Below the pieces are notes generated by a model. It saw only the letters and a program-made list of their open reading frames with translations. It had not been told where the DNA came from and ran no database searches. From an uncultured Clostridia bacterium (lineage in GTDB: Bacteria > Bacillota > Clostridia > Christensenellales > UBA1242), in the NCBI GenBank assembly GCA_934772045.1, contig CAKVMH010000001.1, positions 17,006-81,005 on the forward strand: DNA of 64,000 nucleotides. The letters are read 5' to 3'. The translations under genes were made by a program, and so were the position numbers. Positions 2,847-47,158 of the stretch are shown here, in pieces. The stretch's first letter is position 1. Each line of letters opens with the position of its first letter.

Positions 2847-4190
2847 TTAATTAAAATTTCTAAGCCCTTTTGGATAGTGATTTTTAAACTTTCCGTTGGC
2901 AATTTTAAACCCACCAACAGGGCAACCCGACACCATAAAAGCACCATATCCATCTAAAAAATTTGCGTCGATTGTTTCACCTTTTAAGTATGCTTGAACT
3001 TGCTTTGCGGTGTAAGGAAAATCGAGTTGCAATTTAAAACATTTCCCAAATGCGGTGAATAGGTTATGAGATGGTTCAAATCGTTTATCTTTTACACTGC
3101 CAACCCGTACACCGATTGAATAATAATTTACACCTTTTTTTAATATATTTTCATTTAAAACCGCATATGCAAAATCGCCGTACTCAAAGCAATTGATTTG
3201 TGTTGTTAAATTATCACACACAAACTTTTGAGCCTGAGAGCAAACCTGCAATTTTAAATTTGATTTTGGCAAATCTTCATTTTCATTTAACTTTTGTAAC
3301 ACTGCAACAAATTGTCCTTCACCTTTTACTTTGTGTGGATACAACCTAACAACTTCTGGCATGTTAATACCGCGTGAAAAATTTGCGTCTATGTTTATCA
3401 ATTTATAATCATGTGTTTGTAAAAACTTAGAAACCACACCTTCATTTTCTTCATAAGAATACGTGCATGTAGAGTAAATTAAAAAACCATTTTGTTTCAA
3501 TGCCCTGTCCGCATTATTTGAAATTTCCAACTGCCTTTCCGCGCACATTTTTGGCAAATTAGGGTTCCATTCATTAACAACCGCTTCGCCACGCCTAAAC
3601 ATGCCTTCACCACTGCAAGGAGCGTCAACCAACACCACATCAAAACTGTTAGCATACGCATTTGCAATATTAGATGGCGTGTCGTTTGCAACAACAACAT
3701 TTTTAAGCCCCATCCTTTCTATATTAGAAAACAAGACCGCACAGCGTGCCGAATTAATTTCATTGCTTACAAGCACACCATTTGGTATTCTGTTTGCAAT
3801 CTGAATTGACTTTCCGCCAGGAGCAGCACACAAATCCAACACCTTTTCATTGCCCTTAAATGCTAACGCATTGACAGTAAACATTGCACTAGGCTCTTGC
3901 ATATAAAAAGCCCCAGCATGATGAAGTGGGTGCTTGCCCAATTTTCCACAAACATAAAAACCTTTACTTTCATATGTTATCGGGCTTATATCGAAATCTA
4001 CAATTTGTTTAAAATGCTCAATGTCAATTTTTTCATTTACAAACAAACCGGACTGTTTTGGTTGGTTTAAAGCTTGTAGAAAATCGTCAAATTCAGCGCC
4101 CAGTATTGTTTTCATTCGTTCTAAAAACTCAACAGGAAGGTTAATCTGTGCTACATCTTTTGGTGTTTTTGTGAATTTTTCTTTAATCAT
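2847..4190 (-). CDS. NOL1/NOP2/Sun-family RNA m5C methyltransferase (RsmF/RsmB-like)
   Basis: Motifs DLCAAPGGKS (SAM binding), DAPCSGEGMFRR and TCTYSYEENE (catalytic Cys motifs); start placed at MIKEKF rather than the ORF-track start 4226. Confidence 0.8.
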   Translation of the reverse strand: MIKEKFTKTPKDVAQINLPVEFLERMKTILGAEFDDFLQALNQPKQSGLFVNEKIDIEHFKQIVDFDISPITYESKGFYVCGKLGKHPLHHAGAFYMQEPSAMFTVNALAFKGNEKVLDLCAAPGGKSIQIANRIPNGVLVSNEINSARCAVLFSNIERMGLKNVVVANDTPSNIANAYANSFDVVLVDAPCSGEGMFRRGEAVVNEWNPNLPKMCAERQLEISNNADRALKQNGFLIYSTCTYSYEENEGVVSKFLQTHDYKLINIDANFSRGINMPEVVRLYPHKVKGEGQFVAVLQKLNENEDLPKSNLKLQVCSQAQKFVCDNLTTQINCFEYGDFAYAVLNENILKKGVNYYSIGVRVGSVKDKRFEPSHNLFTAFGKCFKLQLDFPYTAKQVQAYLKGETIDANFLDGYGAFMVSGCPVGGFKIANGKFKNHYPKGLRNFN

Positions 4191-21950: not shown

Positions 21951-22185
21951 AAATCTCCTTAATAATTTTCAAATATCTCATTTAAAATTAATTAAATCCT
22001 ATAATAAATATGTCTTTAATTAAATTAAAACATTTTTTATTTATTTTTAATTAAACATCAATCAAAATCACTAAAATTTCATAAAAATTAATTATTTTTA
22101 TAATTTTAACGCAATTTTTATTATTTTTTATATGTTTTTTATTTTTTATTAATTATTTTGTTTATTATTTTCATTTTTTATTTAT

Positions 22186-22440
22186 TCTATCTCTACACTT
22201 ACTGGCATTTTGTACTTGTCAAAAATGATATTAATAATAAATTTTTTGTCTTCTTCAATGAACCTTCTCTTTTTTTCAATCATTCTATCTCTACACTTAC
22301 CGGTATTTTGAATTTGTCAAAAATGATATTAATAATAAATTTTTGTCTTCTTCAATGAACTTTCTCTTTTTTCAATTATCCCATCTCTACACTTACTGGC
22401 ATTTTGTACTTGTCAAAAATGATATTAATAATATCAAACA
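22186..22440 (-). repeat. Tandem repeat (about 96-98 bp x about 2.6) duplicating the 3' end of the TM2 gene
   Basis: ATCTCTACACTTAC[TC]GG[CT]ATTTTG[TA]A[CT]TTGTCAAAAATGATATTAATAATA recurs at 22189, 22287 and 22383. Confidence 0.85.
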
Positions 22441-31669: not shown

Positions 31670-32025
31670 GGGGATGAATTAGTTTCGACTGTCATGCTCT
31701 GTTTTGATACGCATGCCGAGCGTCGGCTCGTTAAACACGTCTTGTTTTTGAACAAGATTAAATAAATCAAAACAACAATAAACTTGCTATGGCTGCCTAG
31801 TTGCACCTAGCCGTCAGTTTGGCAGTACCGATATGCCAAAGTCTGGCGTCGTAAATCGGTAAACGATTGATTTTGTCGCCTAGCGAACTCAATTGTACTT
31901 ATAGGCTTGAAACCCGCAAGTGTTGGTGTAAGTTGCAGGTTTTGAAATATAGTCATCAACTAAGCATGTAGTGTATGATTTCAAAGCATGGTAGGACATG
32001 GGTGCAACCCCCATCATCTCCACCA
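31670..32025 (+). ncRNA. ssrA: tmRNA (transfer-messenger RNA)
   Basis: 5' GGGGATG pairs with 3' CATCTCC-ACCA; T-arm-like GGGTGCAACCCCC; internal tag frame ending ..AAT AAA CTT GCT ATG GCT GCC TAG (..NKLAMAA*) at 31762-31800. Confidence 0.9.
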
Positions 32026-32033
32026 ATTTTTAA

Positions 32034-32136
32034 ATAAACCAAATTATTTCGCTGTCGCTCTTAAATTTGGTTTGTCGTATTAAGAATAAGCCAATTTACT
32101 TCGCTGTTGCTCGTAAATAAGGCTTGTTGTATTCAC
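32034..32136 (+). repeat. Two tandem 52-bp hairpin repeat units (dispersed family)
   Basis: AATAAACCAAATTATTTCGCTGTCGCTCTTAAATTTGGTTTGTCGTATTAAG / AATAAGCCAATTTACTTCGCTGTTGCTCGTAAATAAGGCTTGTTGTATTCAC. Confidence 0.75.
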
Positions 32137-32140
32137 AATA

Positions 32141-32200
32141 AAAAAAACAGTTAAATGAAGTGACCCCATAGGAGTTTACTTGAAAATTAACTGTTTTTTA
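32141..32200. terminator. Bidirectional terminator (ssrA / barstar-like gene)
   Basis: AAAAAAACAGTTAA ... TTAACTGTTTTTT long-loop hairpin. Confidence 0.55.
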
Positions 32201-43977: not shown

Positions 43978-44033
43978 TAATAAACCAATTTATCTCGCAT
44001 TCTTTAATTTATAAGGTTTACAGATAATCAGAA
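43978..44033 (+). repeat. 52-bp hairpin repeat unit, degenerate single copy
   Basis: AATAAACCAATTTATCTCGCATTCTTTAATTTATAAGGTTTACAGATAATCAG. Confidence 0.5.
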
Positions 44034-44085
44034 AACAAATTTTTTTCACATAAACTCATAAATATGATTTGTTGTTTAAAAAATA

Positions 44086-44113
44086 CAAAAAATCCACGAT
44101 GTGTGGATTTTTC
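44086..44113. terminator. Bidirectional terminator
   Basis: AAAAAATCCAC-gatgt-GTGGATTTTT. Confidence 0.7.
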
Positions 44114-44266
44114 ATTTTCTAACAATAAATCTTAAATTATTATTGTGCATACAAACTATTTTTACTGGCGAAAACAAATATTTTAGTTATTATATTAAAT
44201 GTTTTGTATGCAATGATTTTATTTTAATTTTTAATAAGTATATTTTATCATTAATTTTTTATTAAT

Positions 44267-45313
44267 TTAATTATTAAAATAATTAATTCCCATATTTGTT
44301 TTCATTCTAATTAAATTTTCAAAAGCAACTTTGCGTGCTTTCTCTGTCCCCGCACGTAAAATTTCAAACACTTTATTTGTATCTTTTGCCAATTCCTTTC
44401 TGCGCTCTCTAATCGGTTGTAGCAACTCTTGCAAAATGTTATTTAAGAACTTTTTAATTTTCATATCGCCCAAACCACCACGTGAATAATGCGCTTTAAG
44501 TTCATCAAGTGAGTGATATTCTGGCAAATACTTTTCAAAATGCTCTGGCTTGCAGAACACGTCAAGATAAGTAAACACAGTGTTACCTTCCACCTTGCCA
44601 GGGTCTTCTACGCGAATGTGACCAGGGTCAGTGTACATTGAAAATACTTTTTGTTTAATTACGTCTGGTTCATCGCAAAGGTAAATGCAATTCCCCAAGG
44701 ACTTACTCATTTTCGCTTTGCCGTCGGTTCCAACCAAGCGGTAGCAACTTTGTTTTTCTGGCAAAACTGCCTTCGGTTCAACAAAAGTTTCGCCATACAA
44801 GTTGTTGAATGAGCGAACAATCTCGCGCGCTTGTTCAATCATTGGCAATTGGTCGTCACCAACAGGTATTATGCTTGCATTAAAGGCAGTAATATCTGCC
44901 GTTTGGCTTACTGGATAGGTTAAAAACCCCATAGGAATAGTGTTGCTGAAATCTTTTGTTTTAATTTCTTCTTTAACCGTTGGATTACGTTCCAATCTTG
45001 CAAGCGTAACAAGGTTCATAAAGTAAAAAGTAAATTCAGTTAATTCACTAACTTCACTTTGCACAACAAATGTAATCTTATTAGGGTCCAACCCCACTGC
45101 CAAATAGTCCAACATAACATTAAGGACATTATCTCTCACTTTTTGCACATTGCCAAAATTGTCAGTCAACGCTTGTGCATCTGCCAACATAACATAATAT
45201 TCATCGTAATCGCCTTTGTTTTGCAATTCCAGCCTTCTCATCAAACTTCCAACATAATGACCAATGTGCAAGTTGCCTGTTGGACGGTCAGCTGTTAAAA
45301 TAATTTTTTTCAT
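44267..45313 (-). CDS. trpS: Tryptophan--tRNA ligase
   Basis: 348 aa; HIGH motif (NLHIGHYVG) and KMSKS present. Confidence 0.9.
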   Translation of the reverse strand: MKKIILTADRPTGNLHIGHYVGSLMRRLELQNKGDYDEYYVMLADAQALTDNFGNVQKVRDNVLNVMLDYLAVGLDPNKITFVVQSEVSELTEFTFYFMNLVTLARLERNPTVKEEIKTKDFSNTIPMGFLTYPVSQTADITAFNASIIPVGDDQLPMIEQAREIVRSFNNLYGETFVEPKAVLPEKQSCYRLVGTDGKAKMSKSLGNCIYLCDEPDVIKQKVFSMYTDPGHIRVEDPGKVEGNTVFTYLDVFCKPEHFEKYLPEYHSLDELKAHYSRGGLGDMKIKKFLNNILQELLQPIRERRKELAKDTNKVFEILRAGTEKARKVAFENLIRMKTNMGINYFNN

Positions 45314-45470
45314 AATTTCTCCTTTTTAAAACGTTTTTCATTTATTTTTAATTAATTTAAATTATTTTTTATTTATATTTATTTTTTTATTATTTCCATT
45401 GCCAAAACATTAAATTTATTTTTAAATATTTAAGTAAACAATTTTTAAGATATGTTTTGATAATATATTA

Positions 45471-45626
45471 AATAACTAATTTGATTTGCTCTCGCTCTTA
45501 AACCGGTTTGTTATTATTCAGAATAAACCATTTTACTTCGCTTCTGCTCGCAAATCTGGTTTGTTGTTATTCAGAATAAACCTATCTTCTTCGATCCCGC
45601 TCGCAAATATGGTTTGTTGTATTCAC
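45471..45626 (+). repeat. Three tandem 52-bp hairpin repeat units
   Basis: ..AATAAACCATTTTACTTCGCTTCTGCTCGCAAATCTGGTTTGTTGTTATTCAG / AATAAACCTATCTTCTTCGATCCCGCTCGCAAATATGGTTTGTTGTATTCAC, plus a more divergent first unit. Confidence 0.75.
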
Positions 45627-45663
45627 AATAAAAAATTCAGTGTGCCACATAAACACGCTGAAT
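45626..45663 (-). terminator. Rho-independent terminator / possible attenuator upstream of trpS
   Basis: Sense ATTCAGCGTG-tttatgtgg-CACACTGAAT (one mismatch) followed by TTTTTT. Confidence 0.7.
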
Positions 45664-45743
45664 TTAAATTCCTATCAAAGGTTCATTAAAAGATTTTGTT
45701 TGTGGCGAATGAAAATACCACTTACACACAGTGTAAGTACGAT

Positions 45744-45773
45744 TTACCAGTTACGCCAACTTAATCTTTTCAT
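45744..45773 (-). CDS. Candidate leader peptide MKRLSWRNW (2 Trp in 9 codons)
   Basis: AGGAGAAATTATGAAAA translation-initiation region is identical over 17 nt to that of trpS; lies behind a strong promoter; hairpin ACTTACAC/GTGTAAGT starts 5 nt after its stop. Confidence 0.4.
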   Translation of the reverse strand: MKRLSWRNW

Positions 45774-45839
45774 AATTTCTCCTAATATTTTAAGCATTGA
45801 AATTAATAATATTTAATCCACCATTTCACTGCTATTTTT

Positions 45840-45868
45840 ATGATAGCACACTAAAATACAATTGTCAA
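45840..45868 (-). promoter_or_regulatory. Strong sigma-A-type promoter in front of the mini-ORF
   Basis: TTGACA (45863-68) - 17 nt - TATCAT (45840-45) with TGC extended -10. Confidence 0.6.
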
Positions 45869-45886
45869 CAAAATTGTAAATTTAGA

Positions 45887-47158
45887 TTAATTCGTATTTT
45901 TGTTTTGTTCTTCGTCTTTTATACGTGCCCGTTCATAAATCAATATTCCCAACATATTAATGCTATACACAATTGAAAATACAATCAACATAATGTTAAA
46001 CAGTATTTGTGAGTTTGAAAAGCTTAACAAACACACAAGCCCAAAAGTCAACACACGTGAAAAGCACAAAGTTATTTCAATGATGCCTTGATGTTCGCCA
46101 ATATCCTGATAAAGACCCGCTTCTTTCAAATCTTTATTCCTAAACACATCATATTGCACTTTAAACAGAGCGGAACAAATTTCTGTGCAGAAATTGAAAA
46201 TTATAACTGTTACAATGTTAGGGTTAACGATGAATATCACACTGCCGACAACTGGCAACAAGCTAATTAAAATATAAAGCCAGTTGCGTTTGCCTTCTTT
46301 TGTAAATCGGTTAAATGTTAATATAAACAAAATAACAGCCACAGCAATTACACTTGTAATTGCACCCAAACTTAAATTACTGCCACATTCAAGCATAACA
46401 CAAACGCTTATAAGTGTGGACAAAACGGAAGTCATGCCATGAATGAAGCTGAAATTATATGCCCTTTTAACTTTTATATATAATGGGAAATTTGCTTTTA
46501 AACGCTCCCAGTAATCTGGTATATTAAAATCGCTGTTTTCTGGTTTTTTGGCATGCACCACAAATGAAACCGCAATTTGCAATAAACAAATGATAAACAC
46601 GTAAATCGCAACTTGGCTGAAAGTGGACACTTCAATTAATGCACCAACTGTAATTGGAAAAATAACATTGACCGATTGCCTCAAAATGTAGGTAAATACC
46701 GCAAATTTATTGATACTTTTACGGCTTACCATTTCTTGTTTTAACACATTGTAACTTGCCCAATAAAACCCTTTTGAAAACCCTTCCAGCAAACCTGCAA
46801 GCCAAATATATCTTGCAATTTGCTCACCAAAGAAAATTGAAAACAGCACCACACCCGCGCGCATAACTAGCGACAACCTGTAAACCCAAATTCTGTTTGT
46901 TTTTGCAACAAGAAAACTTGCTAAATAATAGATAACCAGCATTACAGCATAGCCTATAACCTCAAATAAACTTGCCTTAAAGCAATAGTCAAATGCGCTG
47001 GTTGAAAAACTGTATAGGTGTGCAATTAAAAATGTGGAAACAAATATGTCAACAGCTTTTGCCAAGGTATGACAAAAACCCAACCCACGGTTGGCATGCC
47101 CATCTTTTTTGCTTGTTGCGATGTCATAGTTGTAACCCATAAAGTCATTATACAACAA
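45887..47158 (-). CDS. Polytopic membrane transporter (MFS-like, substrate unknown)
   Basis: 423-aa ORF with about 11-12 hydrophobic helices. Confidence 0.55.
   Translation of the reverse strand: MLYNDFMGYNYDIATSKKDGHANRGLGFCHTLAKAVDIFVSTFLIAHLYSFSTSAFDYCFKASLFEVIGYAVMLVIYYLASFLVAKTNRIWVYRLSLVMRAGVVLFSIFFGEQIARYIWLAGLLEGFSKGFYWASYNVLKQEMVSRKSINKFAVFTYILRQSVNVIFPITVGALIEVSTFSQVAIYVFIICLLQIAVSFVVHAKKPENSDFNIPDYWERLKANFPLYIKVKRAYNFSFIHGMTSVLSTLISVCVMLECGSNLSLGAITSVIAVAVILFILTFNRFTKEGKRNWLYILISLLPVVGSVIFIVNPNIVTVIIFNFCTEICSALFKVQYDVFRNKDLKEAGLYQDIGEHQGIIEITLCFSRVLTFGLVCLLSFSNSQILFNIMLIVFSIVYSINMLGILIYERARIKDEEQNKNTN

Follow-up and report, generated by a model that had tools for sequence, protein, structure and literature searches.

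A putative ribosome-mediated attenuator with a nine-codon tryptophan leader upstream of trpS in an uncultured Clostridia bacterium

The 64,000-nt stretch of DNA considered here (the window), from an uncultured Clostridia bacterium, carries on its minus strand a 574-nt gap between the gene for a 423-aa membrane protein (47158-45887), MFS transporter-like by its relatives, and trpS, which encodes the 348-aa tryptophan--tRNA ligase (45313-44267, preceded by the Shine-Dalgarno (SD) sequence AGGAG at 45323-45319) and whose product matches TIGR00233 at 235 bits (cut-off 177). The gap holds a whole leader, with a short Trp-codon open reading frame (ORF) and an intrinsic terminator, and the subject of this analysis is the probable role of this leader as a transcription attenuator of trpS. 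The evidence consists throughout of sequence comparison and RNA folding, the compared loci from relatives being designated by L-numbers. An earlier note on this DNA had claimed a promoter, an SD, a nine-codon ORF, an 8-bp hairpin and a terminator upstream of trpS, and all of these are present on the minus strand.

The promoter combines a -35 element TTGACA (45868-45863), a 17-nt spacer and an extended -10 element TGcTATCAT (45848-45840), which amounts to 11/12 plus TG; in a promoter scan, it is the top promoter-like site in 44000-46500, and L001-L006, L137, L138 and L141 have a corresponding promoter with a perfect -35 and an extended -10. The leader SD (AGGAG, 45783-45779) lies 5 nt before the ATG of an ORF of nine codons plus TAA (45773-45744; ATG AAA AGA TTA AGT TGG CGT AAC TGG TAA) that would encode MKRLSWRNW, two of the nine codons (45758-45756 and 45749-45747) specifying Trp. 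The 17-nt identity between the ribosome-binding sites of the leader and of trpS, also pointed out in the earlier note, is real (26 nt at 85%) but is not kept in relatives, so that it is best read as two near-consensus SD-ATG-AAA sites; for want of such conservation, a duplication or insertion scar was rejected as its origin.

For the leader RNA (45783-45627), the predicted folding energy is -41.1 kcal/mol (z = -4.3), a value matched by 0/200 shuffles. When free, this RNA is predicted to form a single long stem-loop, SL1 (-24.9 kcal/mol), whose 5' strand (helices P0 and P1) is segment 1, that is ORF codons 2-8 (AAAAGAUUAAGUUGGCGUA, 45770-45752), whose apex is the hairpin P2 and whose 3' strand is segment 2, or S3' (UUCGCCACAAACAAAAUCUUUU, 45709-45688). 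P2 is a perfect 8-bp hairpin (ACTTACAC/GTGTAAGT, 45738-45720, -8.9 kcal/mol) with GGUAUUUUC directly after it, and together with its GG and U-rich tract UAUUUUC (45738-45711) it was flagged as terminator-like and resembles a pause site or a weak terminator. The intrinsic terminator T2 (segments 3 and 4, 45665-45627) consists of a hairpin of -13.3 kcal/mol with one C.A mismatch (45665-45633), then T6AT2, the T run extending to 45627. The folds and duplex energies give segment 2 (CGCCACAAAC..., 45709-45688) two alternative partners: either the ORF (UGGCG...) or the apex of T2 (GUGUUUAUGUGGCA, 45656-45643), where its complement comprises the upper 5' arm, an unusually large loop rich in G and U, and the first nucleotide of the 3' arm.

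The earlier note had seen no T-box before trpS and had proposed covariance models as a check, and none was found: in the whole window at gathering score, Rfam models returned neither a T-box nor a Trp_leader (a tmRNA was the sole match), and in 45200-46000 neither T-box RF00230 nor Trp_leader matched even at E<=10. Likewise, no T-box precedes trpS at gathering score in 18 close loci. TRAP-type attenuation, as in B. subtilis, relies on nine to eleven (G/U)AG triplets spaced 2-3 nt apart, and a leader of this type was rejected since 45314-45840 holds no run of even four such triplets. T-boxes do lie directly before trpS in more distant relatives in which TrpRS is ~70% identical, at 74-94 bits and E values of 1e-14 to 1e-19 (L049 94 bits, L037 92, L024 89, L033 85, L029 76 and L026 74), with a specifier that reads, by eye, GAA-UGG-A/G. 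Control of trpS by tRNA-Trp thus exists nearby in the clade.

The window organism is related to 'Candidatus Onthoplasma' (best TrpRS identity among species representatives, 91%), gut bacteria with genomes of 0.75-0.9 Mb assigned to the Firmicutes, Clostridia, Christensenellales, family UBA1242 (PMC12306168). The TrpRS sequence of the window species is present on 17 contigs, run ERR7745382 supplying an example. Leader loci from relatives were compared from L001-L008, from metagenomes (L122, L134 and L136) and from Logan, ENA and NCBI contigs (L137, L138, L141, L143, L144, L146 and L147). The earlier note had named conservation of the mini-ORF and its Trp codons as a point on which its proposal could fall, and both are retained in 14 leaders of other species, always before trpS where the contig reaches the downstream gene (trpS is confirmed downstream in L122, and the contigs of L134 and L136 stop before the next gene). 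The predicted peptides include MKRLSWRNW, MKRFSWRNW, MTRFSWRNW, MKRLSWRIW, MKNLSWRNW and MKRLSWRLW, as well as the more divergent MKMFSWRIW, MMKMFAWRW, MKKMLWWNK, MLKFFGWRI and MNLCWRN/G. At least one in-frame Trp codon is found in all 14 (one or two codons, 2-3 codons before the stop) and the spacing from stop codon to P2 is invariably 4-6 nt; SD, ATG and reading frame are kept, while the other residues and the 5' untranslated region (UTR) vary. An SD match of 4-5 nt is found in 12 of the 14, L008 and L122 having a weak SD or possibly a leaderless in-frame upstream ATG. The gene upstream of the leader differs from locus to locus (MFS transporter, tuf, a DNA-alkylation repair gene and others), from which it follows that the unit travels with trpS. 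Short Trp-codon ORFs are, moreover, enriched at this place: ORFs starting with ATG, of no more than 20 codons and with at least two Trp codons, occur in 9/17 trpS-upstream regions of the clade vs 3/204 control intergenic strands (Fisher p=1.6e-9). A metagenome scan for the P2 hairpin pattern gave 56 matches, three of which are real leaders (L122, L134 and L136), the remainder being rejected as chance matches in unrelated environmental contigs.

P2 is nearly invariant in sequence in all leaders, and RNAalifold applied to ten of them recovered both P2 and P1 (UGGCGUA/UACGCCA), with 98.6% of P1 cells paired. In L007 (3895-3945), the sequence of the 5' P2 arm (ACTTACAC) recurs in the 3' arm of the terminator. 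T2 keeps its position while its stem changes: across 11 lineages, with the arms registered by hand, compensatory changes are seen in six of its seven stem pairs, paired cells make up 96%, and the covariation score was reached by 0/500 shuffles.

The earlier note had been unable to identify a clear anti-terminator pairing, and this gap is narrowed by the predicted pairing between segment 2 and the T2 apex, which is conserved in 14/14 leaders. In the window, CGCCACAAACAA pairs with GUGUUUAUGUGGCA at -12.2 kcal/mol as a two-strand duplex (p=0.005) and, folded in cis, the segment 2:apex structure reaches -14.4 kcal/mol vs -13.3 for T2. With the whole terminator hairpin as target, the best duplex of segment 2 falls on the apex in 14/14 leaders, among which there are ~9 different terminator sequences; these duplexes range from -9.6 to -15.8 kcal/mol vs -10.6 to -18.3 for the terminators, with p values per leader of 0.000-0.030 against shuffles. 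Among the pairs are CCACGAAAAC with GUUUUUAUGG in L003, GCC-CAAAAAC with GUUUUUGGGC in L005, CCACUAAA with GUUUGGUGG in L141, and GCCA-CAAAACAU with AUGUUUUGUUGGC in L144. An earlier version of the duplex test, in which the target was cut inside the terminator loop, was not significant for window-like leaders. In folds truncated before the 3' arm of T2, with a ribosome positioned at the first Trp codon (footprint assumed to span -15 to +12 relative to the codon in the A site, the outcome depending on this footprint), P2 stays intact and segment 2 pairs with the apex in the window, L001, L003, L008 and L122; in the same truncated folds with the ribosome absent, segment 2 is taken up by SL1. Since a loop held in a helix of ~10 bp should not be closable by the stem below it, the segment 2:apex pairing would be expected, on steric grounds, to exclude the terminator.

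The connection between leader and trpS is closest in several relatives, where the end of T2 is 39 (L146), 46 (L008), 53 (L144), 63 (L007) or 74 nt (L122) from the trpS ATG, so that there is essentially no room for a separate promoter and trpS would have to be reached by read-through. In the window, the promoter scan gave no promoter-like site with a score of 9/12 or more in the interval from T2 to trpS. The earlier note had conceded that trpS might have its own promoter in 45314-45470; this weakness is thereby reduced, although a weak promoter there is conceivable.

Taken together, the lack of a T-box, the conserved Trp codons and the predicted antiterminator pairing support the proposal of the earlier note: a ribosome-mediated attenuator that responds to charged tRNA-Trp and takes the place of a T-box. 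We estimate at about 70% the probability that the leader is a classical attenuator of this kind, which would raise trpS expression when charged tRNA-Trp is scarce. The parts, their conservation, their alternative pairings and their link to trpS are read directly from the sequences and their comparison, whereas timing, polymerase pausing and response direction are inferred, the last by analogy with the logic of the Trp T-box that occupies the same place in more distant relatives. In the proposed mechanism, transcription would start at the promoter at 45868-45840 and a first ribosome would translate the nine-codon leader while the polymerase is still within it, P2 and its U-rich tract probably pausing the polymerase and keeping the two machines in step. 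With ample Trp-tRNA, the ribosome would reach the stop codon, 6 nt before P2, and leave; segment 1, including the UGGCG of Trp6-Arg7, would then zip with segment 2 around P2 to form SL1, T2 would form, and transcription would stop at ~45627. A ribosome stalled with its A site on the first Trp codon would hold segment 1 inside it, leaving P2 folded and segment 2 free to pair with the emerging upper 5' arm and loop of T2, so that no terminator would form and the polymerase would read through into trpS. This would amount to the classical 1:2, 2:3, 3:4 logic, with P2 as an additional element between segments 1 and 2. Because the distance from stop codon to P2 is fixed at 4-6 nt, P2 would be opened by a ribosome terminating at the stop codon but not by one held at the first Trp codon; once P2 is open, the GUGG that follows it is predicted to pair with the CCAC of segment 2, which would keep segment 2 off T2 until SL1 reforms.

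Several findings weigh against this interpretation. In full-length minimum free energy (MFE) folds with the ribosome footprint masked, T2 persists in every leader of the SWRNW type except L007 (ribosome on the stop codon), so that the terminator wins at equilibrium and antitermination would have to be kinetic; that the earlier note saw no antiterminator is in line with this. The antiterminator is limited to the apex of T2 and does not cover the whole 5' arm. In truncated folds of the window leader, placing the ribosome at the second Trp codon or the stop codon yields a small GUGGU/GCCAC hairpin and no antiterminator; with the ribosome on the second Trp codon, the antiterminator is likewise absent in L003 and L005, while it persists in L001. 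Covariation in P1 and P2 is weak, with a single compensatory change, in P1, and 173/500 shuffles doing as well, and it adds little since these helices are nearly invariant. No leader at all lies upstream of trpS in L009, L010, L011, L013, L015, L140 and L145. The compared loci share ancestry, so that neither the counts nor the p-values given here are independent. The remaining difficulties concern the spacer. The window has 316 nt of A+T-rich DNA with inserted repeats between T2 and trpS, which is room enough for a weak promoter, and that spacer holds a conserved UUGGC(A/G) island, which L002, L137, L141 and L143 have at 79-103 nt from the trpS ATG. It is the sole G/C island in the otherwise A+T-rich spacer of the window, and in L141 it reads AUUGGCGUAAAA, resembling UUGGCGUAA of the leader.

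A first alternative is that the leader is an independent small gene, whose ~200-nt transcript would act as a trans-acting small RNA or encode a functional 9-aa peptide while trpS is expressed from its own weak spacer promoter. The promoter and the terminator of the unit are both strong, the 316 nt to trpS offer space, the UUGGC(A/G) island is a possible -35 element, and in L007 an extended -10 (TGTTATAAT) comes right after the T run of the terminator; there is also a precedent for trans functions of an attenuator RNA and leader peptide in rnTrpL/peTrpL of Sinorhizobium (bioRxiv 10.1101/606483). A reading of the relatives' sequences, however, revealed no consistent -10 behind the island, and such a gene would not be expected to stay with trpS when the upstream gene changes, nor to end 39-53 nt before the trpS ATG as in L144/L146 and L008. 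What is conserved, moreover, is the Trp codon(s) and the RNA pairings rather than the peptide, and sister lineages have structurally different Trp-codon leaders in the corresponding position. On these grounds, an independent small transcript seems less likely than an attenuator, and we regard it as unlikely in absolute terms.

The remaining alternatives accept that the leader acts on trpS but change its logic or its sensor. In one, the regulated element would be P2 with its U tract (45738-45711), a terminator or pause melted by a ribosome at the stop codon, so that read-through would require completed translation of the leader and would drop when Trp-tRNA is scarce; or else the element would set a basal expression coupled to translation and would not sense Trp. 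That P2 looks terminator-like in the scan, that its 4-6-nt spacing from the stop codon is strictly kept and that, in L007, the 3' arm of P2 is released for pairing with the 3' arm of the terminator when the ribosome sits at the stop codon would all fit. Yet the U tract UAUUUUC is short, interrupted and begins 2-3 nt past the stem, a cell making less TrpRS when tRNA-Trp is uncharged would run counter to the T-box logic of the same gene in relatives and to the textbook switch of the L014-type leader described below, and nothing in this reading would account for the conserved match of segment 2 to the T2 apex; such a reading seems improbable. More improbable again is a switch that works without translation, in which the stem-loop (P1/P2, GUGGUAUUUU and CGCCAC) would bind a protein, a small ligand or uncharged tRNA-Trp and the ORF would be incidental. 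P1, P2 and the GUGG/CCAC motifs are indeed conserved as sequence and not by covariation, and UGGC is complementary to GCCA, the expected 3' end of bacterial tRNA-Trp, which would be a minimal T-box-like contact. Against it stand the conserved SD, ATG, frame and stop position, for which an untranslated RNA would have no need, the lack of any T-box match even at E<=10, a 35-60-nt 5' UTR that is not conserved and hence holds no Stem I or specifier, the absence of the second UGG of the internal loop in L007, L008 and L122, and the absence of (G/U)AG triplet runs of the TRAP-bound kind.

The attenuator interpretation also draws on sister lineages in which other Trp-codon leaders precede trpS. In L012 (1-233) and L014 (3751-3920), these read MNIIINKNSWCWRNI and MNTIMNKNFWYWRNI up to their stop codons, with the motifs WCWRNI and WYWRNI, and in L016 (3583-3718) and L019 (about 3450-3620) they read MFNTIKSLNIWSTRWR and MKFILKKSWQNWINHRYSM, with WSTRWR and WQNW. 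L028 (3825-3987) has MKKFMWWWQII, with WWW, and the peptides of L020 and L022 end in LKSWRKA and FKRWRNACEI, the Trp codon of L020 lying inside the terminator hairpin itself. In plain MFE folds of the L012/L014 leaders (MN..WYWRNI), a ribosome on the Trp codons converts the terminator into an antiterminator; in L014, this happens with the ribosome on either Trp codon and is reversed with the ribosome on the stop codon, so that a leader of this type behaves in silico like a textbook attenuator. In L016/L019, a segment complementary to the 5' arm of the terminator comes immediately after the stop codon. In the leaderless L140, a terminator-apex-like sequence (GTTTGTGTTTGTTTTGTGGAC) is found before a simple promoter (about 300-372), which suggests that the leader was lost there.

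The lineages with a T-box have a short ORF of their own. In L024, L026, L027, L029, L030, L033, L037, L040 and L049, an ORF with a good SD and a conserved K-R-W-C (AAACGAUGGUGCAC) lies between the terminator of the T-box and trpS, 27-49 nt upstream of the trpS ATG, and constrained folds of this ORF region revealed no obvious switch sequestering the trpS SD. The 'MMVHRWH' ORFs of L023/L025 were discarded as merely T-box sequence read as protein. The attenuators of the clade may derive from such Trp-codon ORFs (..KRWC.., ..KRWRN..) between T-box and trpS in sister lineages. As for the broader scenario, in which a genome-reduced gut clade ('Ca. Onthoplasma' and its UBA1242 neighbours) has replaced the T-box of trpS by leader-peptide attenuators of at least three architectures, that is the SWRNW type (whose CCAC segment could pair with any of three partners), the WYWRNI type and the WSTRWR type, it is put forward tentatively, as a possibility somewhat short of an even chance.

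Leader-peptide attenuation has long been known, and what is unusual here is the gene and the phylum; the element shows no sequence relation to the known cases and matches no Rfam family. The E. coli trpL leader carries WWR, and the window leader shares with it and with other classical attenuators a short translated ORF in which Trp codons are followed by Arg (here WR), a hairpin next to the ORF that could be a pause signal and a terminator at least as stable as the antiterminator, leaving the choice to kinetics; in our model, it shares as well the covering of segment 1 by a stalled ribosome, which leaves segment 2 to pair with the terminator region. It differs from trpL-type leaders in the presumed control of a tRNA synthetase gene rather than of biosynthesis, in the nine-codon size of its ORF, in the extra apical hairpin that separates segments 1 and 2, in that a ribosome at the stop codon leaves segment 2 uncovered, and in that the antiterminator pairs with the apex and not with the whole 5' arm. 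Ribosome-mediated attenuation of an auxiliary trpS (trpRS1 of S. coelicolor) has reportedly been described, to go by the title of a 2010 article by Vecchione and Sello in J Bacteriol.

Among synthetase genes, classical attenuators are described for pheST in gamma-proteobacteria; in a comparative study, they were predicted for trpS and leuS in Streptomyces (including trpS2 of S. avermitilis), and aminoacyl-tRNA synthetase genes of Firmicutes were stated to have T-boxes 'and none' to be under classical attenuation (PMC1262725). As in pheST with its pheM leader and in Streptomyces trpS and leuS, a leader peptide rich in the cognate residue would control a synthetase gene by termination and antitermination, but phylum and sequence are different, the present case being from the Clostridia (Christensenellales, UBA1242), and the Streptomyces gene is an auxiliary antibiotic-resistant copy of trpS whereas that of the window is the sole copy seen in it. 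With the Trp T-box of Firmicutes trpS, the leader has in common the gene, the position, the presumed signal (charging of tRNA-Trp) and a terminator as output; it lacks Stem I, specifier and T-box sequence, sensing being presumably performed by the translating ribosome. In B. subtilis rtpA (anti-TRAP), tRNA-Trp is sensed by a T-box in tandem with ribosome stalling on a Trp-codon leader peptide (PMC10327191, citing Chen & Yanofsky 2003 and 2004). The T-box-bearing relatives discussed above similarly have a Trp-codon ORF (..KRWC..) between the T-box terminator and trpS, unlike the window, where there is no T-box and the leader ORF would work with a terminator.

The gap has several other features. 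A hairpin that can form in the 5' UTR (AGCAgUGAAAU...AUUUCAaUGCU, 45833-45793), upstream of the leader SD, may be a 5' stabilising stem-loop, and other hairpins are found at the same place in relatives (e.g. UUUAAGCAauuUGCUUUAAA in L003). The G/C island of the spacer (UUUUGGCAAUGG) lies within a mini-ORF, MFWQWK (45410-45390), which was rejected as a second leader since no SD precedes it and its frame is not shared by relatives. Between the attenuator and trpS (45632-45466), the earlier note had described three 52-bp repeats: the repeats are real, but their period is 53 and there are 2.4 clear copies (45505-45632) plus one degenerate copy extending to ~45466, followed by ~150 nt of A+T-rich DNA up to the trpS SD. 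Each unit is a hairpin without a U tract (AACAAACC-N28-GGUUUAUU) and belongs to a dispersed family of ~53-nt units with a ~44-nt hairpin (AATAAACC-N28-GGTTTGTT) that has no Rfam match and looks like a small REP/MITE-like element. The repeats are identical in another sample of the window species (L148), absent in L137, the nearest other species (TrpRS 94% identical), in which 110 nt separate T2 from trpS, and absent in all other relatives, including L138 and L141; L001 has a single related unit before trpS in the opposite orientation (3910-3950). Because they are missing in relatives and dispersed elsewhere, they are considered an insertion into the spacer, outside the regulatory design. Two further copies come directly after the tmRNA gene of the window, at 32033-32142 on the plus strand. 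That gene (31670-32025, plus strand) is full-length by Rfam (128 bits, E=1e-49), whereas ARAGORN reported no tmRNA and no tRNA in the 64-kb window. Elsewhere in the window, a tandem repeat at 22174-22433 (period 96, 2.7 copies, 89% matches, TRF score 436) is adjoined by an A+T-rich low-complexity stretch (22114-22186).

Aminoacyl-tRNA synthetase genes of Firmicutes are textbook T-box territory, and the replacement scenario outlined above would, if true, provide the first instance of classical attenuation of such a gene in this phylum. On a practical level, the leader marks a cis-regulatory RNA that goes undetected by current Rfam models and is therefore of interest for the annotation of gut metagenomes, while its nine-codon ORF, among the smallest of attenuator ORFs, could serve as a compact part responsive to Trp-tRNA. 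Finally, the occurrence of trpS with a T-box in some gut lineages and with a Trp-codon leader and a terminator in others offers a natural series in which to follow the replacement of one sensor by another and, should the proposed scenario be true, would have captured the transition from a tRNA-sensing to a ribosome-sensing RNA.

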